The notes: generated by a model not told the origin, from the sequence alone. A DNA stretch of 61,584 nt, filler included, from 4 parts of 4 records of this genome joined end to end with filler, not necessarily neighbours in it, one strand, 5' to 3'; positions 10,739-48,249 are shown, counted from the whole stretch's first letter. A program made the numbers and translations.

Positions 10739-11428
10739 TCAGAGGGGCAGGCGAGTGCCAATATTCTTGGCTGCCTCTCCAATGACCGTCTGTAGAGTGA
10801 TAACGTTTTCCGAAATCATCTCTTCTGACCAGTTCAGCTCCTGGAGGGCCTCCCAGGCTATCTCCCCGCTTTCAGCATCCCATATCTGAAAAAAGAGCCT
10901 GAGGGTCGCTTTTCTGGTCTCGACAAGCCGTAGTCCAAAGACTCCCAACCTGCCGCTGGCCCCCTGTTTAAACCCTGCAAGTTTGAGTTGAGCCAGATAC
11001 CTTGTTTGGGTTGCATGGGAGATCTTACGCAGTATTTCAGGTTTGAAGACACCCGTATCCTTATATTCCCTGTACATGTACTCATACTCACCGGCAAGAC
11101 CCGCCTTGTTGATGGCACTGAGGGTTTCCGGTAGTGAGAGTATTTTCAAGTCACTTCTTTCTTTCTCAAGGGTGTTAAAAAAGATAAAGGCAACAGCCTG
11201 TTTTTCTTCCTCCTGGCCGGTAACGGTGGATGGGGTCATAAAGGCAATGCCGTTTTCTTTCAGGAGTTCTGCTGATAAGCTGAGCTGCTTGTGATCGATT
11301 TTGGAGTATACTTGCGGGGAACACCCGATAAGAAAGACGGGGAAGAGTAAAAGCAGTAACAGAATAAGGGATGATTTTCGATATTTCAATATCTGGGTAT
11401 AAAAACATATCAGCAGTGAATTTATCAT
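10739..11428 (-). CDS. Putative lipoprotein
   Basis: Basic residues, hydrophobic stretch and LIGC lipobox; true start probably downstream of 11428. Confidence 0.7.
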   Translation of the reverse strand: MINSLLICFYTQILKYRKSSLILLLLLLFPVFLIGCSPQVYSKIDHKQLSLSAELLKENGIAFMTPSTVTGQEEEKQAVAFIFFNTLEKERSDLKILSLPETLSAINKAGLAGEYEYMYREYKDTGVFKPEILRKISHATQTRYLAQLKLAGFKQGASGRLGVFGLRLVETRKATLRLFFQIWDAESGEIAWEALQELNWSEEMISENVITLQTVIGEAAKNIGTRLPL

Positions 11429-15623: not shown

Positions 15624-16412
15624 TTAGTAGGCAAATGCCCGGTATCCATCACGGGAACCAAGCCAGCGTTCACGAAAGGAAAGGGGGTGGTACCGTTTTC
15701 TTCGTTTGTTTTTAGGGAGCCGGTTCATTTCCAGTTCCGTTACCTGCCCATACTCAAAAGGAAGACTTTTGGTGTTACCTATTGCAATGGATGTCAGTGG
15801 CGTGTCTTTACTGGTCAGGATGGAGAGTGGGGAATAAGCAGATGTCCTGGAATTTAATGGATGAGCAGTGAGCCCTTTGCTATCAAACACTTTCTTTACC
15901 ATCTTTCCACCGAGAAGACAGTTGAGATTGCTGTTGATAATGAGCGCACCGTATTGCTGGTTGAGTAATGGGTGGTTAAGGAGCTGTAGTAGTTGTTTTT
16001 TAGGGCTGGCATCGGTGAACCGCACATTGATCACCAGGACGGAATTGCTATTAACTCTAATGACCCCGAACTGAATCTGCCGGTGCACATTATTGATTTC
16101 AGACAGCGAAAAACTGCCGCTGTTAAGCATCCAACAATCTTTACCGGTAAGAATGGAAAAGCCTGTTTGAGCCTTTTTTTTATGTTTACGAAATGTCGCT
16201 TCATAGTCTTGACATGAGTTTGAGTACATATACGTCATTTCGAGTGACTGGGCAAGATCGCGAGCCAGACCATGGGTATCGACTCCAGGAATGCATGCTG
16301 TCTGGTTAAACAGAATATCTAGCGCTTGATCTTGCATGGCTGATACCAGCTCGGAATAGGTTGTGTTGGTGTCGATTGACTGGAGTTCGTTGACTGTCGC
16401 AATACGTAACAT
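15624..16412 (-). CDS. Hypothetical protein, possibly a degenerate endonuclease/exonuclease/phosphatase fold
   Basis: Starts MLRIATVN, resembling the EEP family LRIxTxN; catalytic motifs not evident. Confidence 0.55.
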   Translation of the reverse strand: MLRIATVNELQSIDTNTTYSELVSAMQDQALDILFNQTACIPGVDTHGLARDLAQSLEMTYMYSNSCQDYEATFRKHKKKAQTGFSILTGKDCWMLNSGSFSLSEINNVHRQIQFGVIRVNSNSVLVINVRFTDASPKKQLLQLLNHPLLNQQYGALIINSNLNCLLGGKMVKKVFDSKGLTAHPLNSRTSAYSPLSILTSKDTPLTSIAIGNTKSLPFEYGQVTELEMNRLPKNKRRKRYHPLSFRERWLGSRDGYRAFAY

Positions 16413-17667: not shown

Positions 17668-19236
17668 ATGGCCGGCAGACCATCTTGTGAAGAATTGGAA
17701 CAAACAATTAAGGCGAATGAAAAAAGGGAGCAAGAGCTGCAGCGAAGCGAAGCACTCTTGAACGCTACTCAGAGAATAGCCAAAGTTGGCGGCTGGGAGT
17801 GGAATGTGGAAAGCCAAACCATGTTTTGGACAAGTGAGCTTTATCGTCTCCATGATTTTAACCAAGATGAGTTTAAGCCTGGGTCGATGAAACATATCGA
17901 GCAAAGCATTGAATGTTATGAACTTGAAGATCGTATGGTTATTCAGGAGGCCTTTAAAAACTGCATTGAGAATGGGGCCGGATATGATTTAGAATTTCCT
18001 TTTCACACTAAAAGAGCTCAACCTAGGTGGATTCGCACGATAGCTGAGCCAATTCGAAAAAATGGTACAGTTATTAAAGTTATCGGCAATGTCATAGATA
18101 TAACTGATCACAAGCAAGCTGAAGAAAAATTGAGGAAGAGTGAATTAAGACTTAGAAAAGCCGAAGAGATGGCTCAAATAGGGCACTATGTCGTTGACAT
18201 AAGCAAAAACAGCTGGAAAATCTCAAGCAAATTAAATGATATTTTTGGAATAGATGAAAATTATATTATTAACTTCGCCAGTTGGATGCAAATAATTCAT
18301 CCAGATCATCGGGGAATTGTGTCGAATTATTTGCGGGAAAATATTTTGAAAAAACACCAATCTTTTGATTTTGAATACAAAGTAATAAATCAAAGAACTG
18401 GGCATGAAAAATGGGTGCACGTGTTAGGTGATCTCAAATTAGATAATAACAGTAACCCTGTTGAAATATTCGGTACAATTCAAGATATTACCGAGCGAAA
18501 AAAAATAGAAAATGAACTGATTAAGTTAAAAAAACTTGAGGCGACTGCAACTCTTGCCAGTGGAATAGCTCATGATTTTAATAATATTTTGACGGTTATA
18601 ACCGGTTATATCGAATTAACTCTGCATGATCGCAGTGTGAATCACAGAAGTACTGAAGACCTGAGTGAGGCTCTTAACGCCAGCAGAAAGGCTCAGGAAC
18701 TGACCAGGGAATTTATCACTTTTTCTTCAGGGGGCGCCCTTGTTAAACGAAAAATATCAATTAAAGAACTCATAACAGAATCTGTTGATGTAGTCTTTCC
18801 TGATACTGATAATCCTGCCGAACTTTCATTTGAAGACAACTTGTGGCAGGTCGAGGCGGATGCTGGGCAGATAAACCAGGTTTTCAAGAACGTGTTTAGC
18901 AATGCAAAGGAATCAACGGAAAAAGGTGGCGTAATCAAGGTTTATGCAGAAAACATTGCATCTTGCATAAATGAGCCTCTTGCAGGTAAGACTTTAACCG
19001 ACAGTAAGTATGTTAAAATAGTTATATCAGATCAAGGTAAAGGTATACCGGATCAAATTATGCGAAACATTTTTGATCCTTATTTTTCAACTAAAAAGCG
19101 AGGGGCTCAAAAAGGAATGGGGCTTGGTCTCACTGTTGCATTGTCTATTGTGAAACAGCATGGCGGTCATCTCGTCCTCAAGTCGAAAGACAATGTTGGC
19201 ACATCTGTTTTTATCTATCTGCCAGCCACACCATAA
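17668..19236 (+). CDS. PAS-PAS sensor histidine kinase (cytoplasmic)
   Basis: Two PAS/PAC repeats, AHDFNNIL H-box, NAKES, DQGKGI, FDPYFSTK, GMGLGL; no receiver domain. ATG 17668 after AGGAG. Confidence 0.92.
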   Translation: MAGRPSCEELEQTIKANEKREQELQRSEALLNATQRIAKVGGWEWNVESQTMFWTSELYRLHDFNQDEFKPGSMKHIEQSIECYELEDRMVIQEAFKNCIENGAGYDLEFPFHTKRAQPRWIRTIAEPIRKNGTVIKVIGNVIDITDHKQAEEKLRKSELRLRKAEEMAQIGHYVVDISKNSWKISSKLNDIFGIDENYIINFASWMQIIHPDHRGIVSNYLRENILKKHQSFDFEYKVINQRTGHEKWVHVLGDLKLDNNSNPVEIFGTIQDITERKKIENELIKLKKLEATATLASGIAHDFNNILTVITGYIELTLHDRSVNHRSTEDLSEALNASRKAQELTREFITFSSGGALVKRKISIKELITESVDVVFPDTDNPAELSFEDNLWQVEADAGQINQVFKNVFSNAKESTEKGGVIKVYAENIASCINEPLAGKTLTDSKYVKIVISDQGKGIPDQIMRNIFDPYFSTKKRGAQKGMGLGLTVALSIVKQHGGHLVLKSKDNVGTSVFIYLPATP

Positions 19237-19506
19237 AAAGTATATTTGTATCAGCTCAGACTTTATCTGACCCTTCTAGGGAGATGAACAGAAATTGTTT
19301 TGTGAGGCTAGCTATGTTGCGTCTTCTCTTCCTTCCTTGCAAAAGGCTGACGGGAAGGGAGGAAAGAGGCGAATAAGTTATGTTGCCTGCAAAAGAAGAA
19401 TTGTTCTCAAGAATTGAGGTGCATGATAAAATAAATGCTTTTTCGAAAAGGATTTTTTTTTCAAGTTGATAGATTGGCTGGCAACACAGCAGGAATAGGA
19501 TTGAAC

Positions 19507-19558
19507 TGGAGCGTTAATTGAATACTACTACCTACGAACTGGCAACATTAACGCTCCA
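19507..19558. other. 12-bp inverted repeat just downstream of the KamA-family gene
   Basis: TGGAGCGTTAAT (19507-19518) / ATTAACGCTCCA (19547-19558); possible 3' stabilising or terminating hairpin. Confidence 0.45.
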
Positions 19559-19575
19559 CCCCATTCTATAGCTTT

Positions 19576-20649
19576 TTATTCCGGCATGTTTGGCCATTTT
19601 GTTGTGACACCTTTATAATTCTCAAGGGTGTACTCTTTCTCATCTTTTCCTTTGATATAATAATCAGGCATCAACGGAATTTTACCGATACTTGTAGCAA
19701 TCACATACATAGGTTGAGCGAGACCTGTTGTATGGCCACGGATGGCATCCCGGATGAGTTCTGCCCCTTTTTCAACAGTTGTCCTGAAATGATCGATTCC
19801 AGGCGCTGGTTCACAGTAAAACAAATAGTAGGGACGAATTCTTACCCGGAGTAATTTCTGATGCAGTTCCCTGAATGTCTCAACATCATCATTTATTCCT
19901 TTGAGCAGTACGGCCTGATTACCAACATTAACACCACAGGTGAGCAGATCAAACACAGCTTCAGCTGTCTTTTCTGTAATTTCATTGGGATGGTTGCACT
20001 GGGTGTTAATCCAGATTGGGATTTTGTGGTATGGGCTCAATATTTTTTTTAGGCCAGGGGTAATCCTGTGGGGTAAGACGATGGGAGCCCGGGTTCCAAA
20101 TCGAATCATTTGGAGATGAGGAATTTCCCGTAATTTTTTAATAATATATTCTAGTTTTTGATCTGAAAGAATGAACGGGTCTCCGCCGGTCACCAAGACA
20201 TCCCGAATTTCTTTATGCTCCCTGATCCATTCTAAGCCTTCGTCTACATCCATACGGAGCTGGAGCTCTCTGTCGACCACAACCTCTTTTCTGAAACAGT
20301 GGCGGCAGTAGTTGACACAGACATCTGTCACCGTAAAGGCAACCCTGTCTTGGTATTGCCGTGCTATGCTATCGGGTCGAACTTCATCTGTATCTCTATT
20401 TTCTTTCCATATGAGATAATTTTTTATCCCGTAATTATTAACAGTTTCCTCTAGGGAGGGAAGTACTTGTCTGCGAATAGGGCATTTGGGGTCATCCTTG
20501 TCCATAAGAGAGGCAAAATATGGAGAGGTACCCCATTTTGTATCCAACGTCTCAATGGCTTGCCGTTCTTCGGGGGTGATATTAATAAACTCTGCTAACC
20601 GTTCCAGTGTATTGACATTGTTTTGGAGTTGTTTAATCCATTCTTCCAT
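19576..20649 (-). CDS. KamA-family radical SAM/PLP 2,3-aminomutase of unknown substrate
   Basis: CVNYCRHCFR cluster motif, TGGDP, NHPNE, NQAVLLKGIND, PYY, GKIP PLP lysine. Confidence 0.92.
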   Translation of the reverse strand: MEEWIKQLQNNVNTLERLAEFINITPEERQAIETLDTKWGTSPYFASLMDKDDPKCPIRRQVLPSLEETVNNYGIKNYLIWKENRDTDEVRPDSIARQYQDRVAFTVTDVCVNYCRHCFRKEVVVDRELQLRMDVDEGLEWIREHKEIRDVLVTGGDPFILSDQKLEYIIKKLREIPHLQMIRFGTRAPIVLPHRITPGLKKILSPYHKIPIWINTQCNHPNEITEKTAEAVFDLLTCGVNVGNQAVLLKGINDDVETFRELHQKLLRVRIRPYYLFYCEPAPGIDHFRTTVEKGAELIRDAIRGHTTGLAQPMYVIATSIGKIPLMPDYYIKGKDEKEYTLENYKGVTTKWPNMPE

Positions 20650-20683
20650 TTAGCTTTACCTCTATTGATTGATGTTGTGAATC

Positions 20684-21994
20684 TTATCTATCGAGATACA
20701 TCGACAATTCACGAGGGGTAACATGGGTTCGATGTCCTTCCCACTCCTTGGTTTTTAATGCCATGAAGTTTTGGTAGGTTTCTTCTCCGAGTGTCTGCTT
20801 GAGAAATGAACTCCCTTCGGCCTCCGCCAGGGCTTCAAACATGGTTTTAGGTAGAAAACGCTTATCCCATATTTTAGTTGATAGATCTTTACTGGAAATA
20901 TCATTTGTGGATTGTTCTCCGCAGGCGATATTATTCCTGATGCCTTCCAGGCCCATTGCTATTAAAATGGCCACTTGAAGGTATACATTCCCCGCTGGAT
21001 CTGGATTCCTGAGCTCGAGCCTGGTACTCTGCGGGTTGGGACAGTAAGGGATCCTGACCATAGAACTTCGGTTCTTAAAACCCCAGTTACAGATAATGGG
21101 TGCTTCCCGTTCTATAACATATGCTTTGTAGGAATTGAAGGTGGAGGCCATAATAATGGATGTTTCTCTGGCATATTTAAGAATACCGCCGATAAAGTAC
21201 CTGGCGATGGGACCGATATTATGCGCAGCGTTTTTGTCATAGAAAACATTTTTCCCTTCGAGATCCTGAATAGAAAGATGCAGGTGAAGAGCATTCCGGT
21301 TGTACCCATCAAAGGGTTTGGGCATGAAGGTGGCTCGATATCCGAATTCTGCAGCAGTTTGCTGAGTGACATAATTAAATAGGACAGTACGGTCAGCGCC
21401 GCTCAGGGGATCTGTGGGTTCGAGGTTTATCTCATGTTGAGATGGCGTAACCTCGTGGTGGGCTTTTTCGAAGGCAATTCCGCTTTCTTTTAGGATATTA
21501 ACTATTTTATTTCTGACAGCTTCCCCTTTATCATGGGGACTTGATTGAAAGTAGAGGCCTTCATCCGTGTGCAGGTTCTTCTTGTTTTTTGCATTTTTTA
21601 GTAGAAAAAATTCATGTTCCGGCCCCAAGAGAAATTTAAAACCGAACTCCCGTTCAGCATCAACCAAAATGTTTTTCAGAATGGCCCTCGGGTCTGCTTG
21701 AGCTGGTTTATCTTTTTCGTTGTAAATACTGGCAATGAAAAATCCTACAGTCTCATCTGAAAATTTTAAAACTTTAAAACTATCTGGGTTTGGAAACAAG
21801 AGACGGTCACTGCTGTCGACAGTCCCGTAGCCTGCAATAGAACTGCCATCAAATCCGATACCATTTTCGAAGATGGATTCAATGTTATCGGGGTTAACTG
21901 GTAGACTCATGATTCTACCGTTAAAATCTGTAAAAAAAATCTTTGTGCTATCGACAGTCTCAAGTTCTTTTTTAATCTCTTTCAAGTTCGCCAT
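20684..21994 (-). CDS. Glutamine synthetase-family ligase with an altered glutamate site
   Basis: FDGSS, PEHEFF, HHEV, QHEI, FMPKP, EAP, NRS, RLELRNPD. Confidence 0.92.
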   Translation of the reverse strand: MANLKEIKKELETVDSTKIFFTDFNGRIMSLPVNPDNIESIFENGIGFDGSSIAGYGTVDSSDRLLFPNPDSFKVLKFSDETVGFFIASIYNEKDKPAQADPRAILKNILVDAEREFGFKFLLGPEHEFFLLKNAKNKKNLHTDEGLYFQSSPHDKGEAVRNKIVNILKESGIAFEKAHHEVTPSQHEINLEPTDPLSGADRTVLFNYVTQQTAAEFGYRATFMPKPFDGYNRNALHLHLSIQDLEGKNVFYDKNAAHNIGPIARYFIGGILKYARETSIIMASTFNSYKAYVIEREAPIICNWGFKNRSSMVRIPYCPNPQSTRLELRNPDPAGNVYLQVAILIAMGLEGIRNNIACGEQSTNDISSKDLSTKIWDKRFLPKTMFEALAEAEGSSFLKQTLGEETYQNFMALKTKEWEGHRTHVTPRELSMYLDR

Positions 21995-22109
21995 ATTGCA
22001 GGTATCCTAATGGGTGTTTTAAATCTCTTTTTGTGTGTATTTTTCCCTTTTCCGCTGCAGTAGTGTCCGGTGATAGCAATGCATGTATAAAAATTTTCCA
22101 TCTGCCGCA

Positions 22110-22142
22110 TAATGTGTAATGTCTAATGTCTAATGTCGACAA
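22110..22142. promoter_or_regulatory. Putative GntR operator: heptamer repeats ending in a TGTCGACA palindrome
   Basis: TAATGTG-TAATGTC-TAATGTC-TAATGTC-GACAA upstream of the GS-like gene. Confidence 0.65.
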
Positions 22143-22194
22143 CCAGTCGTTTGAAAGTTCCCTTCGATATGTTTTCGTATCATACACCCCTTTG

Positions 22195-22842
22195 TTACCC
22201 TTTTTGCAGGGAAGCTATTTTTGTTCCTGTTTCGGTGTAATGGTCGCGAACGACCTGTTCGACCTGTGACATCTCATGCGATTTGAGCGCATCGACGATT
22301 CGCTGGTGACGGTTGCCAATCTCTTCCTGGTTGTAAAGTTTCGGCCAGTGCTTGAAAAAGAGGATGTGGAGTTTAAGACTCAAGCGCTGGGTATACTCGA
22401 TGAGCTGAATATTATTGTTTTTGCTGATGAGCAGACTGTGAAAGTCGTCACCAGCCTTAACGACCATTTTTCGGTTGTTTTTGCTGGCATATTTTTCCAT
22501 CATCTTTGCCATGCCGCTTAGCTCTTCGATCTCATCTTCGCTGAATTGGTCGCGTGTGGTTCCTATTGCATATCCTTCCAAGACTCCTCGGGTGATATAG
22601 GCATCGACGATTTCTTTTGGGGAGAGTTGGGTAATATAGTTGCCCACCTGTGGGCGGTATTCAATGATCCCATTACTGATGAGCTCTTTTAAACCTTCAC
22701 GGATGGGCGCCCTGCTTATACCCATTTCATTTGAAAGGGAGCTCTCTTTGACCTGGTCACCGGGAGTAAGGGTGCCATCCAAAATCAAATTGTACAGATA
22801 TTCAACAACTTGGTCTTTGTAAGTTCGTTTGACGATGACCAT
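22195..22842 (-). CDS. GntR (FadR/FCD) family transcriptional regulator
   Basis: wHTH with LSNEMGISRAPIREGL; FCD domain with DDFH and H-x-x-I-V-D-A-L. Confidence 0.93.
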   Translation of the reverse strand: MVIVKRTYKDQVVEYLYNLILDGTLTPGDQVKESSLSNEMGISRAPIREGLKELISNGIIEYRPQVGNYITQLSPKEIVDAYITRGVLEGYAIGTTRDQFSEDEIEELSGMAKMMEKYASKNNRKMVVKAGDDFHSLLISKNNNIQLIEYTQRLSLKLHILFFKHWPKLYNQEEIGNRHQRIVDALKSHEMSQVEQVVRDHYTETGTKIASLQKG

Positions 22843-22876
22843 TCTTAATTTCCTGTAAATTTCATCAGTTTTCAGT

Positions 22877-22896
22877 GTTAGTCGATTGTCGACATT
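22877..22896. promoter_or_regulatory. Second putative GntR operator (autoregulation)
   Basis: GTTAGTC-GATTGTC-GACATT containing TGTCGACA at 22887-22894, 45 nt upstream of the GntR start. Confidence 0.6.
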
Positions 22897-23093
22897 GGGG
22901 TCGTGTAACCTTTTTTGCCTATTGATAGCAAGGGAAAAATAGAATTAAGGAATTTTTCTTAACCACTTCTCATAAGCAGTAGGGTGGTTACTGTACATCA
23001 GGCCTTTCATCTGAAGTAGGCAGAGCTGCTCATTAAAAATGTATAGAAACAAACTTGGCAGGCACACTGGTTGATGAAAATGCAGTTGCCTTT

Positions 23094-24068
23094 TTAGCCC
23101 AGCTGTCGAATGACATCTCTCGCAATTCTTTCGCTGTATGTGTTCAGTTTCCAGTGGTCAGGGCTCCAGCCTTTAAGGAAACGGAGAAAATCCGTCCAGG
23201 CATAAGGGTAAAGATTTCGCCACTCCGCCTCTACTGTTGGAAAGTCGATTTCTGGCTTGCACGCGGCAAGAGCCCCCTGTAGAGCTGTGAAGTAGGTATT
23301 CAGTAACCAGCTTTCCAGACGCTCGCAATCATTATCCCCAAGACAACTGCCGATAAAATAAGCTACATCTTTCATGCCGCATCCACCACCAACGTATTGG
23401 AAATCCACCGCGGCCACCTTTTCGCCATCATGAGAAAAACAAAAATTTGCAAGCTTGGCGTCTCCGTGTACAAGTGTTTGATTCCGACAATCCTGCAATA
23501 CTCTATCAATCCTGCTAGCAGCATGTTTAAGTGCAGGATCATCCAGGGCTTCTAATTCTTCCGGTCGCGTTTCCAAGTGCCAGTAGGTGCCTTGAGACCA
23601 CAACCCTGTAGGTTTGGCTTCCATCCAGGTCGCGTGAAACCAGGCAAGCCATTTAAGACAGGCGATAATTTCTTTTTTTCCGACTACCTCTCGACGATCT
23701 GGAAAACCTACAGAATCCAGGTCTTCCAGAACGATCACCGTCTCTGCGTCAAATTGTTCTACAGCCAGGCAATGTGGAATCCGGCATTCATCAGGACACA
23801 GATAAGCCCAGTTGGTGTACCATTCTGTTTCCACTTTATACGACCGCAGCTTACGGTGATGTCCAAGGTCAGTATTCCATCCCCGTGGGTGGTCTCTCCC
23901 ATCCAGCAGATTTACATGCTTCATGACAATGGTGGAAATGGTGCTCCCTGTTAATCGATAGCGCTGGATCGCCCCGTAACCGCTCCACAGTTCCTGAATT
24001 TCTTCAATCAGTTCTATATCAGTGGCGCCTGTTGCTTTTAGAGCACAATCAAAAATATCGTTTTGCAT
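23094..24068 (-). CDS. Aminoglycoside/choline-kinase-like phosphotransferase (ecdysteroid kinase-like family)
   Basis: HGDAKLANF catalytic loop and VDFQYVG metal-binding motif. Confidence 0.85.
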
Positions 24069-31164: not shown

Positions 31165-31542
31165 TTATTGCTCGCTCATGCAACCTGAAAAGAACCGAAC
31201 CAAAGAAAAAACGAACAAGCATGATTTTGCATAGCAAAATCTATTGACCGATAGTATTATTTTGTTTGCAAAATGATACAAAAGGTAGAAAATTCAATGC
31301 GCAGTTTGCCCCAAAGGGCAAATCCACTACGTAAAGCGACGCAAAATCAAGTTTTGTCTTACGCATTACTTAAGTGGGCTTAGGAATTTTCTTATTAAAC
31401 TATTGTGTAAATTGCAGTGAAAGATTGCTACGGATAGGTCTACCACCCCCCACTACACCAATATCCACTTTCCCACTTTCCCCAACCTCCCATAAATGCT
31501 ATAATATTACTATATATTACATATACAGGGGAGTTGTGGCAG

Positions 31543-34320
31543 ATGGATGTTAAGAAGTTTATTAGAGAGCTGAAAGAGATTACTGATGTTAAAGTTATAG
31601 TTTACGAAGATGATAAGAAGTTTAGACGCAGTTCGAATTTATATGGCATTTCAATACTAAAAGTAAATGATACTATAACAGGAGTACGTGTACGTAGTTG
31701 CGAAAATATTGAAAAGATATTAAAGAAGATAGTACAGTTAAATTCTTTGACCTCTTTAGAATTATCGCGATGCAAACTAAAAAAGATACCACAAAGCATA
31801 TTTGAGTTAGAATCCTTACAAGAATTAGATTTAGACGATAGTCAAATAACCCATATACCAGAAAGTATAGTAAAGTTAAAATTCTTACAAAAATTATATT
31901 TAGGCAGTAATCAAATAGCCCATATACCAGAAAGTATAGGGCAGTTAGTATCCTTACAAGAATTAAATTTAAGCGATAATCAAATAAGCGAGATACCAGA
32001 AAGTATAGGACAGTTAAAATCCTTACAAGATTTAGATTTAAGCTGGAATCAAATAACCCAGATACCAGAAAGTATAGGAGAGTTAAAATTTTTACAAAGA
32101 TTAAGTTTAAAAGATAATCAAATAAGCCATATACCAGAGAGTATAGGACAGTTAAAATTCTTAGAAAGATTATATTTATACAAAAATCAAATAACCTATA
32201 TACCAGAAAGCATAGTAAAGTTAAAATCCTTACTAATATTAGATTTAAGGGATAATCAAATAACCCATATATCAGAAAGTATAGGACAGTTAAAATACTT
32301 GCAGTATTTAAGATTGTGGGGTAATCTAATAACAAAACTACCACCCCAATTATGCAAACTAGAGCTATTGGAAAAACTTGATGTTGATGATTGCCCCTTA
32401 GTTGACCCGCCTATAGAGATTGCGAAGCAGGGTATAGATGCAATACGTGAATACTTCGAGGCAAAGGAAAAGGAGAAAGTCAAGGTCTACGAAGCCAAGC
32501 TAATGATAGTAGGCGAACCGGGAGCAGGGAAGACAACTCTCCAGCGAAAACTGCTGAACCCAGAGGCAGAGCTGCCAGAGAAAGATGAAACTACCAAGGG
32601 TATAGATATTGGTACATGGGAATACAGCTACAGGGATAATAATTACACAGTAAATATTTGGGACTTTGGAGGGCAGCAGATATACCGTTCTACTCATCAG
32701 TTTTTTATGAGTGAGCGTGTGCTATATGTACTGCTGGCTGATTCACGAGAGGAAAAAACCGACTACAATGACTGGCTTCATCGAATACAGCTATTTGCCA
32801 ATGACAGCCCTGTGGTTATCGTCCACAATGAAATGAACGACAGAGTAAAGCAAATCGATATGCCAAGTCTGAGGCAGACATTCCCATATATAAATGAACC
32901 CATGCGATGCAATCTGGCAAAGACTGTAGGCTCGATAAGGGAAGATGAGTATTGGAGTGTAGTTAATGAGATAAAGCAAAAGATAGCCAAGCTAAATGTA
33001 ATAGGGCAGGAGTTTCCTAAGTCATGGCTGGATTTAAGGAGCCAACTAGAGATAATAGTAAATCAAGATAAACTAGACTATATTTCATCAGATAAATACT
33101 ATGAGCTTTGTGAGGAATATGGAATTGACCAAAGGGGTGCAAAAGTACTGGGGAACTATCTCCATGCAATCGGAGCAATATTATTTTTCCCAGAGGATGA
33201 TGTCCTAAAAAATACTGTTATCCTAAATCCTGAATGGGGAACAGATGCAGTGTACAAGGTAATCGACGATGAAAGGGTGCAGAGTAGCTACGGTAGATTT
33301 ACCATGTGTGACATACACAGGATTTGGTCGGCAAATATGTATAGTAATAAACACTTTGAGCTGCTTCAATTGATGAAGAATTTCAGAATCTGCTACAAAT
33401 CAACTCATCAGAGAGACTTTTACATACTGCCTCAGCTGCTAAAGTATCCACCCGAAGATTATTCATGGGGACATAAGGCAGACCTTCACTTCAGATATCA
33501 ATATTCAGGCTATTACCTAAAGCTGATAATGTATCATTTCATTGTGGCAGTTCACCAGTATATTGAGGGGGATTGTGTTTGGCGAAATTGTGTAATACTT
33601 GGCAGAGATGATGCCAGTGCAGAGATAAAGGCGGACGAAAAGAAAGGACGAATACACATTCGTGTCAGTGGTATGATGTGCGATGAATTTCTGGCAATAA
33701 TACGCTACAACTTCGAAATGATTCACTCACAGTATCCTAAGCTGCAGGTAGAGAGTATGGTTCCCTGTAATTGTGATGTGTGCAAAAATTCTGATGAACC
33801 TAACTTGTATAAGAATTCATATCTGCGTGACAGACTAAAACACGGTAAGAAAATAGTGGAATGCAGTAAAAACAACTATACTGAAGTGGATATTGAGACG
33901 TTAGTCAGGAACTTCCCATTTTATAAAATTAACGATAAACAAAAATGGATGACTAGAGAAGAAACAGAAAAATTGATAAAGGAGAAAGGTTTTATGAAAA
34001 TACATTATGGCGACGAAATACATGCTGGCGGAGATGTGCAAAATGCAAAAGGCAAAAATATCAATCAAACAATGACAAAAGATTCAAAAATGGAGAATGC
34101 GGTAAAAGACCTAAAGAACGCAATAGACAAAGAAGAACTACACAGTGATATCAAAAATCAAATCCAAGCCGTTATCACAGAGATACAGGATAACGACTAC
34201 GACCTAAAGCCAAAGGTTAAAATCAGGCTAAAGGATACACTGCAAAATATTTTGCAGAATGTAGCGAATGTGGCTACAGTTGCAGGATTTATTACACAAT
34301 TGATTGGATTGCTTACTTGA
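31543..34320 (+). CDS. Roco protein (LRR-Roc-COR) with a C-terminal extension
   Basis: 23-aa LRRs; Roc motifs GEPGAGKT, TKGIDI, WDFGGQ, THQFF; COR (ILNPEW, LLQLMKNF); CNCDVC...C. ATG 31543 is 9 nt after GGAG. Confidence 0.93.
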   Translation: MDVKKFIRELKEITDVKVIVYEDDKKFRRSSNLYGISILKVNDTITGVRVRSCENIEKILKKIVQLNSLTSLELSRCKLKKIPQSIFELESLQELDLDDSQITHIPESIVKLKFLQKLYLGSNQIAHIPESIGQLVSLQELNLSDNQISEIPESIGQLKSLQDLDLSWNQITQIPESIGELKFLQRLSLKDNQISHIPESIGQLKFLERLYLYKNQITYIPESIVKLKSLLILDLRDNQITHISESIGQLKYLQYLRLWGNLITKLPPQLCKLELLEKLDVDDCPLVDPPIEIAKQGIDAIREYFEAKEKEKVKVYEAKLMIVGEPGAGKTTLQRKLLNPEAELPEKDETTKGIDIGTWEYSYRDNNYTVNIWDFGGQQIYRSTHQFFMSERVLYVLLADSREEKTDYNDWLHRIQLFANDSPVVIVHNEMNDRVKQIDMPSLRQTFPYINEPMRCNLAKTVGSIREDEYWSVVNEIKQKIAKLNVIGQEFPKSWLDLRSQLEIIVNQDKLDYISSDKYYELCEEYGIDQRGAKVLGNYLHAIGAILFFPEDDVLKNTVILNPEWGTDAVYKVIDDERVQSSYGRFTMCDIHRIWSANMYSNKHFELLQLMKNFRICYKSTHQRDFYILPQLLKYPPEDYSWGHKADLHFRYQYSGYYLKLIMYHFIVAVHQYIEGDCVWRNCVILGRDDASAEIKADEKKGRIHIRVSGMMCDEFLAIIRYNFEMIHSQYPKLQVESMVPCNCDVCKNSDEPNLYKNSYLRDRLKHGKKIVECSKNNYTEVDIETLVRNFPFYKINDKQKWMTREETEKLIKEKGFMKIHYGDEIHAGGDVQNAKGKNINQTMTKDSKMENAVKDLKNAIDKEELHSDIKNQIQAVITEIQDNDYDLKPKVKIRLKDTLQNILQNVANVATVAGFITQLIGLLT
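31843..32325 (+). repeat. 69-bp tandem repeat encoding LRRs (7 close copies plus degenerate flanks)
   Basis: CAAATA(A/G)...ATA(C/T)CAGA(A/G)AG(T/C)ATAG units start at 31843, 31912, 31981, 32050, 32119, 32188 and 32257. Confidence 0.92.
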
Positions 34321-47097: not shown

Positions 47098-48249
47098 TTA
47101 TCTGAAGGAAATACCTAATCCAAAATTCACCATTGAATATTCCTGGTAAATATAAGCAGCATGCAGTGAAACAATTGCTAATTTTAATTGAAATCCAATT
47201 GCAGCATTAAATGAGCTATATTTTATATCTGCATCTATCGGATCAGTAATTATATTATCGCTATCTAGCACTGACACAATATTGTCACCATTATCATCAT
47301 GTGATGCATATTCACCTGTTGCATAAACATAATCCGGTATTAGATATTTACCATTTAGTGAAATATTAAAATTGCTACTTGCGTACCCTAAACTGGCAAA
47401 TGCAGTAAAAACACTAAGTTTTTTAGAAATAATAAAATTCACATTCCACGCAGAGGTAGTTAAAGTTAAGTCTTGTGTTCTGTAAAAATCATTTTCAACA
47501 GCAACATCATCTTCATCAATAGGTAAAGTTGGATCAACATATTCAAATACAAAATCATCTTCAACAAGAGCTGTGGGATAATAATCAATTTGTGTGTATG
47601 TTCCACTTAATCTGGACCAACCTCCCTGCAGTGACATATGGAATGGTAATTTATTAACGACTGGAATCCATTGCTTGAAATCATGTTTTAGACCAAAACC
47701 TAACATGCCAATTTTACCATAATCCCCAAACTCTAACTCCGGAAAAAACCTGAATGTAAGATCTGTCCCTTTAATAACACCTACACTTAATTGCATCATG
47801 GGTAAAGGAACAAAATCTAGCCCACTTCCATCAGGAAGGGTGTAAATGTCATTCAATGTTAAACTATTTCCAAACGGATCTTCAATTGTAGCTCCTACAG
47901 TTGCACCATCATTACTTCCCATAATTGTTGCTGAAGTTGTGCTAGAACCCGGTTCTATTACATGAAAGTCATAATCATCAAAACTAAATGTACCTGCAGA
48001 TGAAGGAACATTTACCAAAGTTGTATTAATTGTAAAATCAAATCCAAATTGTTGATGTGTTTCGGCAGTCCAAAACCATCCTGCATTCATAGCTGTTCCA
48101 AAACCTTTTCCAAAAGGTTCAAGATATGCTTTGGTCAGGTTCTCCATATCCTGGGCACCTGACGTTATAAACCTGCCTATTTCACCTTGTGAAAATGCGC
48201 CAAATGGCATAATAATGGCAAAAAGCAAATAAAATGCTGTTTTTTTCAT
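47098..48249 (-). CDS. Outer-membrane beta-barrel-like protein (DUF6588-like)
   Basis: Signal peptide, GFGLKHDFKQW, C-terminal FGLGISFR. Confidence 0.75.
   Translation of the reverse strand: MKKTAFYLLFAIIMPFGAFSQGEIGRFITSGAQDMENLTKAYLEPFGKGFGTAMNAGWFWTAETHQQFGFDFTINTTLVNVPSSAGTFSFDDYDFHVIEPGSSTTSATIMGSNDGATVGATIEDPFGNSLTLNDIYTLPDGSGLDFVPLPMMQLSVGVIKGTDLTFRFFPELEFGDYGKIGMLGFGLKHDFKQWIPVVNKLPFHMSLQGGWSRLSGTYTQIDYYPTALVEDDFVFEYVDPTLPIDEDDVAVENDFYRTQDLTLTTSAWNVNFIISKKLSVFTAFASLGYASSNFNISLNGKYLIPDYVYATGEYASHDDNGDNIVSVLDSDNIITDPIDADIKYSSFNAAIGFQLKLAIVSLHAAYIYQEYSMVNFGLGISFR

Follow-up and report, generated by a model that had tools for sequence, protein, structure and literature searches.

A conserved pair of glutamine synthetase-like ligase and KamA-family aminomutase genes in Desulfobacterota, with a possible role in beta-glutamate assimilation

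Radical SAM 2,3-aminomutases of the KamA family have been modelled in three substrate classes, acting on lysine (the KamA/AblA enzymes), glutamate (Eam, of the Clostridioides difficile type) and arginine (the BlsG type), and in the ablAB osmolyte operon the mutase is joined by a second enzyme that modifies its beta-amino acid. Paralogues with the glutamine synthetase (GS) fold and a changed substrate choice are found in catabolic operons as gamma-glutamyl-amine ligases (PuuA, Streptomyces GlnA2/GlnA3, GmaS). Here we describe a locus that brings the two families together, in a 61.6-kb stretch of DNA (the window, that is, the whole stretch that was analysed). We find that its GS-like and KamA-family genes form a real, conserved and uncharacterised two-enzyme module, in which each enzyme is a new specificity variant of a well-known family. 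In the window the module is on the minus strand and, as an earlier note on this sequence had described, comprises three co-oriented open reading frames (ORFs), which span 19576-22842:

22195-22842, minus strand: gntR (P0003), 215 aa, a FadR/FCD-type GntR regulator (Pfam GntR + FCD)
20684-21994, minus strand: GS-like gene (P0002), 436 aa, a putative ATP-dependent carboxylate:ammonia ligase (Gln-synt_N + Gln-synt_C)
19576-20649, minus strand: KamA-family gene (P0001), 357 aa, a radical SAM/pyridoxal phosphate (PLP) 2,3-aminomutase (Radical_SAM + LAM_C)

A spacer of 34 nt with an AGAGG ribosome-binding site lies between the GS-like and KamA genes, and 200 nt separate gntR from the GS-like gene. 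The partner of the mutase is a GS-fold ligase and not a GNAT acetyltransferase as in ablAB, and no ablB is found nearby. Consistent with the earlier observation that ablB, efp/epmA and lysine-fermentation genes are not adjacent, we detected no acetyltransferase, elongation factor P or lysine-fermentation domain in the ten neighbouring ORFs scanned (10.7-29.4 kb).

Is the pair conserved? We took the best 80 (76-95% identity) of 458 P0001-related stretches in species-representative genomes, nearly all of them from Desulfobulbales, Desulfobacterales, Syntrophobacteria and Desulfovibrionales, and searched these genome loci with the three window proteins by tblastn. A GS-like match was present in 62 of the 80, and in 57 it lies directly upstream of the mutase gene on the same strand (of the 57 matches, five run off a contig end and three fall into two pieces). 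Elsewhere, in L015, L016, L049, L053 and L078, the match is 2.4-6.5 kb off and carries the same variant signature. The 18 loci that gave no GS-like match include two with less than 100 nt of upstream sequence. In a reciprocal scan, metagenome contigs searched with P0002 yielded 28 loci, 20 of which contain the GS-like variant at 61-92% identity (the motif NSYKAY was seen in 19). The mutase, recognised by its Glu/Ala (E/A) specificity residues described below, is directly downstream in all 14 variant loci that extend at least 1.1 kb beyond the ligase gene; five others end too early and one (L125) has a mutase fragment only. No E/A mutase lies beside the eight distant GS matches (29-38% identity) in the metagenome loci. 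The pair, whose conservation the earlier note had put forward as a check, is kept across lineages with GS-like identity down to about 60% and is a conserved functional unit across orders of Desulfobacterota. The dependence within it is one-sided: the ligase variant was not seen without the mutase in any testable locus, and the mutase occurs without the ligase, as in two complete single-chromosome assemblies (G002 and G003) that contain the mutase and no variant GS anywhere. Separately, one genome carries the whole pair twice (G004 contig C8, 7843-10141 and 977424-979722, about 970 kb apart), both GS-like copies being 81-82% identical to the window GS-like protein.

The mutase retains the cofactor chemistry of its family. 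P0001 passes the KamA subfamily model TIGR00238 (291.3 bits, cut-off 199.2) and aligns with lysine 2,3-aminomutase (LAM; C. subterminale, PDB 2A5H) at E = 2e-90, with the same fold and cofactor motifs. Its cluster cysteines C111/C115/C118 (CxxxCxxC) match LAM C125/C129/C132, R120, the arginine after the third cysteine, matches LAM R134, and K323 matches LAM K337; we take the last two to be the arginine that binds the alpha-carboxylate and the PLP lysine. Eam shares the cysteine triad, the arginine and the lysine, and makes a five-carbon beta-amino acid. The specificity positions are different: E280 and A318 of P0001 replace LAM D293 and D330, which presumably bind the epsilon-ammonium group of lysine, E122 stands where LAM has R136, Q98 stands where LAM has R112, and the C-terminal ~50 residues of LAM are absent. 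Alignments to 2A5H and, for the partner enzyme, to GS structures thus agree with the earlier note that both proteins keep their catalytic residues and change substrate-binding ones.

We calibrated the two specificity positions empirically on 136 full-length KamA-family representatives, taken from a library clustered at 50% identity. Asp/Asp (D/D) is found in 94 of them, Lys/Asn (K/N) in 7 and E/A in 2, namely P0001 and P0124. Known classes map onto these signatures: the D/D representative P0127 passes the AblA equivalog (TIGR03820), the K/N representative P0149 passes the glutamate 2,3-aminomutase equivalog (TIGR04368), and P0129, which is Asp/Thr (D/T) with a Phe at the R136 position, passes the arginine 2,3-aminomutase equivalog (TIGR04468) at 629.9 bits. 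P0001, Glu/Ala with a Glu at the R136 position, fails all three. Its best equivalog score is for the arginine model (372.7 bits vs 600), followed by the lysine model for AblA/KamA (344.4 bits vs 525.4) and the glutamate model (342.2 bits vs 650). By signature and score, then, P0001 is predicted to be neither a lysine, a glutamate nor an arginine type of aminomutase, and the earlier supposition that it is no ordinary lysine 2,3-aminomutase is borne out by E280/A318 and the shortfall against the lysine model.

The E/A signature marks a well-delimited clade. One full-length representative in the library belongs to it, at 75% identity to P0001, and the next full-length relative, outside the clade, reaches no more than 45% identity. 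At 147 positions out of 357 the residue is the same in all 74 clade sequences, E280, A318, R120 and K323 included; E/A is found in 74 of 74 clade sequences and, among the representatives, in this clade only. W81, Q98, E122, E280 and A318 are among the invariant residues that are clade-specific, defined as differing from at least 60% of the 134 other representatives. A FastTree phylogeny of the 136 representatives places the clade on a long branch, sister to a W/D/G representative (support 0.93), within a 17-tip group (support 0.84) that contains all K/N tips and the D/T tip; we therefore assign it, as a prediction from the tree, to the non-lysine group in which the Eam and arginine types are also found. 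The loop before the PLP lysine is shortened in the clade as it is in the arginine type. The E/A clade would thus be a fourth class of radical SAM 2,3-aminomutases beside the three modelled ones, with a strictly conserved signature of its own, and has a cultured carrier in Desulfopila inferna (protein P0041, 83% identical).

Two further non-canonical KamA paralogue types occur within a few kb of the E/A mutase, and neither passes any equivalog. The first has Ser/Thr at the specificity positions and is 439-543 aa long (532-543 in five of six loci); it is found in L005, L006, L012, L044, L047 and L050 (for example L047:2231-3862), in five of the six after an ATP-grasp gene. The second, Met/Gly, is encoded by ORFs of 398-601 aa (L013:3718-4956, L015:4681-5877, L036:169-1974) and adjoins glnHPQ and RpiR genes.

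The ligase shows the same combination of intact chemistry and altered specificity. The closest solved structures to P0002 are methanogen type I-alpha GS (E = 7e-91), yet P0002 fails the GlnA equivalog (TIGR00653, 361.8 bits vs 429.15) and also the PuuA-type gamma-glutamylputrescine/polyamine synthetase model (NF045547, 220.6 bits vs 650). We aligned it with 52 full-length relatives (53 sequences in all), using St residue numbers that we assume to be correct. D50, S53, E129, E131, Y179, E212, E220, H269, H271, E327, R339, R344, E357 and R359 are all kept in the GS-like enzyme. Apart from S53 (52 of 53), none of the residues that serve as metal ligands, ATP arginines, flap glutamate or ammonium site in type I-alpha GS structures (Methanosarcina mazei, M. 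thermolithotrophicus, B. subtilis) varies across the 53 sequences. In contrast, G265 is replaced by Arg, G267 by Ala and L322 by Tyr in all 53, and R321 is replaced by Ala in 52 and by Gly in the remaining one; in P0002 itself, R233 stands at G265 and A291 at R321. The GS loop NGSGMH accordingly reads NRNA(L/F/Y)H in the clade (NRNALH in P0002), and KRL reads KAY.

The replaced residues bear on the acid substrate. St G265 and R321 correspond to MtGS Gly246 and Arg303; the first precedes His250 by four residues and the second precedes the flap Glu309 by six, a motif spacing, given in PMC10799026, with which the St numbering agrees. That paper counts Gly246 and Arg303 among the Mg/glutamate-binding residues conserved across archaeal and Bacillus GS. 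P0002 therefore lacks two conserved glutamate-binding residues of type I-alpha GS. The gamma-glutamyl-amine ligases show the opposite pattern, since, according to PMC8998196, these characterised GS-like enzymes leave the glutamate site as it is and differ in the ammonium site; in P0002 the acid site appears rebuilt and the amine site does not, the reverse of every characterised GS-like ligase that we compared. Canonical GS paralogues (KRLVPGYEAP) with much higher Pfam scores coexist with the variant in G001, G004 and G005; thus, the variant is an extra paralogue and, unlike type I-alpha GS, is always supernumerary.

Which reactions would such a pair catalyse? We propose, with a probability of roughly 0.3, that the module assimilates beta-glutamate. 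The GS-like and KamA-like enzymes would share beta-glutamine as an intermediate: the first, as a beta-glutamate:ammonia ligase, would convert beta-glutamate, NH4+ and ATP to beta-glutamine, and the second, as a glutamine 2,3-aminomutase, would interconvert beta-glutamine and L-glutamine. Overall, ATP would drive the conversion of beta-glutamate to L-glutamine, and an environmentally abundant beta-amino acid would be assimilated. The chemistry of each step follows from what is intact, namely the catalytic, ATP and ammonium sites of the ligase and the radical SAM/PLP motifs of the mutase. The substrates are suggested by what has changed: in the ligase, the pair of residues holding the alpha end of L-glutamate is swapped; in the mutase, a Glu that reaches one bond further replaces a lysine-binding Asp, and the partner enzyme would make a primary amide.

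The two sets of constraints converge on one compound. Because its ammonium site is intact, the ligase probably still uses ammonia, and because one Arg is lost and another gained in the same pocket, it probably still binds a dicarboxylate; the product would then be a mono-amide with a free carboxylate. The mutase, for its part, would need a free alpha-carboxylate (for R120), and since its Glu is one methylene longer than the Asp of LAM, the terminal nitrogen of the side chain should be one bond closer, as in glutamine or ornithine. Glutamine/beta-glutamine alone would satisfy both enzymes at once. The earlier note had proposed a two-step route in which a 2,3-amino shift on glutamate precedes amidation. 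Amidation with ammonia and a 2,3-amino shift around beta-glutamine remain the best chemical fit, but the proposed order finds no support, because the mutase is Glu/Ala and lacks the Lys/Asn signature of the glutamate enzymes. The simplest flux would instead run from beta-glutamate through beta-glutamine to L-glutamine, because GS chemistry is effectively irreversible and no K/N aminomutase was identified. This negative covers five whole genomes searched with TIGR00238 and is based on the match list and on the signatures of the paralogues next to the pair; weaker KamA-like matches are also present in four of the five, and the specificity residues of these more distant matches were not read.

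Beta-glutamate abounds in the sea and would be a plausible substrate for bacteria of marine sediments. It is a major solute of methanogens, and a methanogen GS was reported to amidate it (PMC1224877); in N. maritimus it is the most abundant metabolite, at 730 mM (PMC8269262). Marine and sediment Desulfobacterota may thus, tentatively, hold a previously unknown ATP-driven route for eating beta-glutamate. The searchable literature yielded no paper on a GS-KamA pair or on glutamine 2,3-aminomutase, although prior characterisation is possible in subscription texts beyond our reach, and neither beta-glutamate catabolism in sulfate reducers nor any catabolic pathway for beta-glutamate was found there.

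We surveyed the 132 ORFs that immediately flank the module in the 80 genome loci. The flanking genes are highly variable between loci. M20 amidohydrolases are the commonest (10 of 132), followed by RpiR and ACT (8 each) and by CBS, Hydantoinase/oxoprolinase, Asparaginase, ATP-grasp, Radical SAM and FlpD (5 each); with the commonest family at only 10 of 132, we rejected the idea of a third universal partner gene. GNAT acetyltransferases of the ablAB type are absent from the 25 most frequent families of these ORFs. A polar amino-acid ABC system is found in 17-20 of the 80 loci, with a GlnH-type binding-protein gene in 17; the locus binding protein passes the GlnH equivalog (335.6 bits vs 303) and matches the E. 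coli glutamine-binding protein at E = 1.6e-81. Six of the 80 genome loci have a type I asparaginase-like gene, as do 5 of 20 metagenome loci, and in the closest relatives of the window locus glnQ-P-H and an asparaginase-like gene are divergent from the GS-like and mutase genes. In L109 (7706-11203), the mutase is followed by DUF2848, C-N hydrolase and D-glutamate-cyclase-family genes and a TRAP (DctP) binding protein gene, which suggests a larger island for utilising a glutamate-like compound; the set is anecdotal, since L108 and L109, the only loci to have it, are 100% identical. The recurrent theme among the neighbours is uptake and amide-bond metabolism of glutamine-like compounds.

The regulator varies as well. 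P0003 has the N-terminal winged helix and C-terminal FCD domain of the FadR/FCD subfamily (PF00392, 54.3 bits; PF07729, 50.5 bits; both above cut-off) and passes no NCBIfam equivalog. Four elements in and around the module may bear on its expression:

22881..22894, minus strand: operator-like site TGTCGACAATCGAC, 39-52 nt upstream of the gntR start
22128..22141, minus strand: second operator-like site TGTCGACATTAGAC, within the gntR/GS-like spacer
21814..21821, no strand: third TGTCGACA copy, ~175 nt inside the GS-like coding sequence
19493..19566, minus strand: stable hairpin directly past the KamA stop codon

The palindrome TGTCGACA is present in three copies in the window, against 0.47 expected, and all three are inside 21814-22894; as many copies were reached in 2 of 100 shuffles. 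The shared operator-like motif described earlier is therefore found only at the module, and the two intergenic copies, before gntR and before the GS-like gene, have TGTCGACAxTxGAC in common, whereas the flanks of the third copy are unlike theirs. Homologues of gntR (76-78% identity) occupy the same position before the GS-like gene only in L109 and L110. In L109 an identical 14-mer TGTCGACAATCGAC is located ~50 nt ahead of the gntR start, and in L110 TGTCGACA is located ~50 nt ahead of it. The operator before gntR is thus kept wherever the regulator occurs, which supports autoregulation. The window module is probably under a lineage-specific, autoregulated GntR/FCD repressor that binds the predicted TGTCGACA-type operators. 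GntR control does not extend to the module in general, as the earlier note might have led one to expect: none of the 80 genome loci and 2 of the 20 metagenome loci have gntR at the module. We rejected it as a general partner on these counts, and it is a lineage-specific addition. Other lineages have RpiR-type regulators, directly upstream of the mutase in eight other loci, or none nearby.

The hairpin (-29.2 kcal/mol, z = -3.9, 0 of 200 shuffles as stable) has no clear U tract and is probably the 3' end of the transcription unit. No riboswitch or other RNA element of Rfam was found in 19000-23300 up to E = 1. Sigma-70-like promoters in 19200-23200 are at chance level (8 vs 8.1 expected), as are sigma-54 consensus matches in the window (32 vs 34 expected), none of which is in the two spacers. 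The regulators, and the uptake systems and amidases among the neighbours, speak for utilisation no less than for synthesis of a compatible solute.

Several observations speak against beta-glutamate assimilation. The substrates of both enzymes are read from residues and neighbouring genes, and the placement of the clade-specific residues in the pocket is itself predicted. A cationic side chain (ornithine, arginine-like) would be accommodated by the acidic residues E280 and E122 as well as an amide. It is not obvious that binding beta-glutamate calls for the loss of R321, because the distal carboxylates of beta- and alpha-glutamate are at the same chain distance. The locus binding protein resembles an ordinary L-glutamine binder and not a beta-glutamate one. 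RpiR regulators, 8 of the 132 flanks, normally sense sugar phosphates. Finally, G002 and G003 have the mutase and no GS-like copy; thus, the ligase is dispensable for the core role of the mutase.

The acidic residues lead to a different assignment, in which the substrate of the mutase is a basic or ureido amino acid (ornithine, citrulline or a guanidino acid), one bond shorter than lysine or related to arginine, and the GS-like enzyme amidates or ligates a different acid of the same pathway. With E280 and E122, both clade-specific, and no Asp at the D330 position, the mutase resembles the D/T solution of the arginine enzyme; the arginine model gives the best NCBIfam score (372.7 bits, vs 344 and 342), and the shortened loop before the PLP lysine is common to both. 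We consider such a substrate unlikely, but give it some weight: the acidic pair in the pocket and the relatedness to the arginine type are genuine evidence against beta-glutamine. The arginine score is nevertheless far under its cut-off of 600, and the combined loss and gain of an Arg in the GS-like enzyme suggests binding of a dicarboxylate and not of a cationic acid. Moreover, genes for arginine, ornithine or polyamine metabolism do not recur nearby, whereas glutamine-type genes do.

Alternatively, the same two reactions could serve biosynthesis, L-glutamine being converted to beta-glutamine as a solute while the GS-like enzyme tops up the pool from beta-glutamate, a view not far from that of the earlier note. 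Beta-glutamine is a zwitterionic compatible solute known from Methanohalophilus. Both beta-glutamine and beta-glutamate are established osmolytes, and GS can amidate the latter (PMC1224877). The carriers, as named, come mostly from marine, saline or soda-lake samples, and genomes that have only the mutase of the pair, such as G002 and G003, would be able to make beta-glutamine from glutamine. However, as no K/N glutamate aminomutase was identified in the five genomes (with the distant matches' specificity residues unread), the supply of beta-glutamate to the GS-like enzyme is unaccounted for. In testable loci the GS-like gene always has the mutase with it, which suits a ligase that feeds the mutase better than one acting as a side entry. 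Regulators of the repressor type (GntR, RpiR) recur nearby together with uptake systems and amidases, as is typical of utilisation loci, and no Na+, c-di-AMP or other riboswitch was found (Rfam, 19000-23300). Osmolyte synthesis thus seems to us quite improbable.

Both enzymes might also be specialised for separate pathways and be adjacent through shared nitrogen regulation or joint transfer. The mutase is indeed found without the GS-like gene in 18 of 80 loci and on two complete chromosomes, and the flanking genes are highly variable. This is very unlikely in view of the strict one-sided dependence, in which the variant is accompanied by the mutase in every testable locus, on the same strand and after a short spacer. 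That an ordinary housekeeping GS and a lysine 2,3-aminomutase are neighbours by chance is hardly credible: public records carry those names and all catalytic residues are present in both, but both proteins are under their equivalog cut-offs, the D293/D330 and G265/R321 equivalents are replaced across clade members (with one Gly at R321), canonical GS paralogues are present in the same genomes, and the pairing is conserved across orders.

If beta-glutamate assimilation by way of beta-glutamine proves right, the module would provide the first natural glutamine 2,3-aminomutase, a dedicated beta-glutamine synthetase and a fourth substrate class of the KamA family, as well as enzymes for making beta-amino acid amides. 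It would also be the first catabolic fate for beta-glutamate, a dominant solute of ammonia-oxidising archaea and many methanogens, and would explain its recycling by abundant sediment bacteria. Should beta-glutamine be the wrong compound, the pair would still be a clean, expressible target for the discovery of a new aminomutase substrate.

In the window itself, ORFs with 150 aa or more from 10.7 to 29.4 kb encode a kinase-like protein, an RND pump, HlyD, TetR, a histidine kinase, a phosphodiesterase, an EAL-GGDEF protein and an MCP, and two neighbouring ORFs (10739-11428 and 15624-16412) have no Pfam match. We compared the kinase-like, RND pump, HlyD, TetR, histidine kinase, phosphodiesterase, EAL-GGDEF and unknown ORFs with the related loci and rejected them as module members, since none had a match of at least 40% identity in any of these loci. 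The surrounding genes are unrelated in function to the module. One of them, an EcKL/APH-type small-molecule kinase gene (23094-24068), is on the same strand, 250 nt upstream of gntR; it has no NCBIfam match and is beside the module nowhere else among the related loci.

Further along the window, G+C falls from ~0.45 to 0.32-0.38 between 30000 and 54000. This part encodes a bacterial ROCO protein (LRR-Roc-COR, 31534-34320) and a DUF6588 protein (47098-48249), together with several ORFs that lack any Pfam match. At the edge of the low-G+C stretch, an ORF at 53950-55059 matches the P22-type major coat protein family (E = 1.3e-48) and is possibly a prophage remnant or another capsid-like gene.

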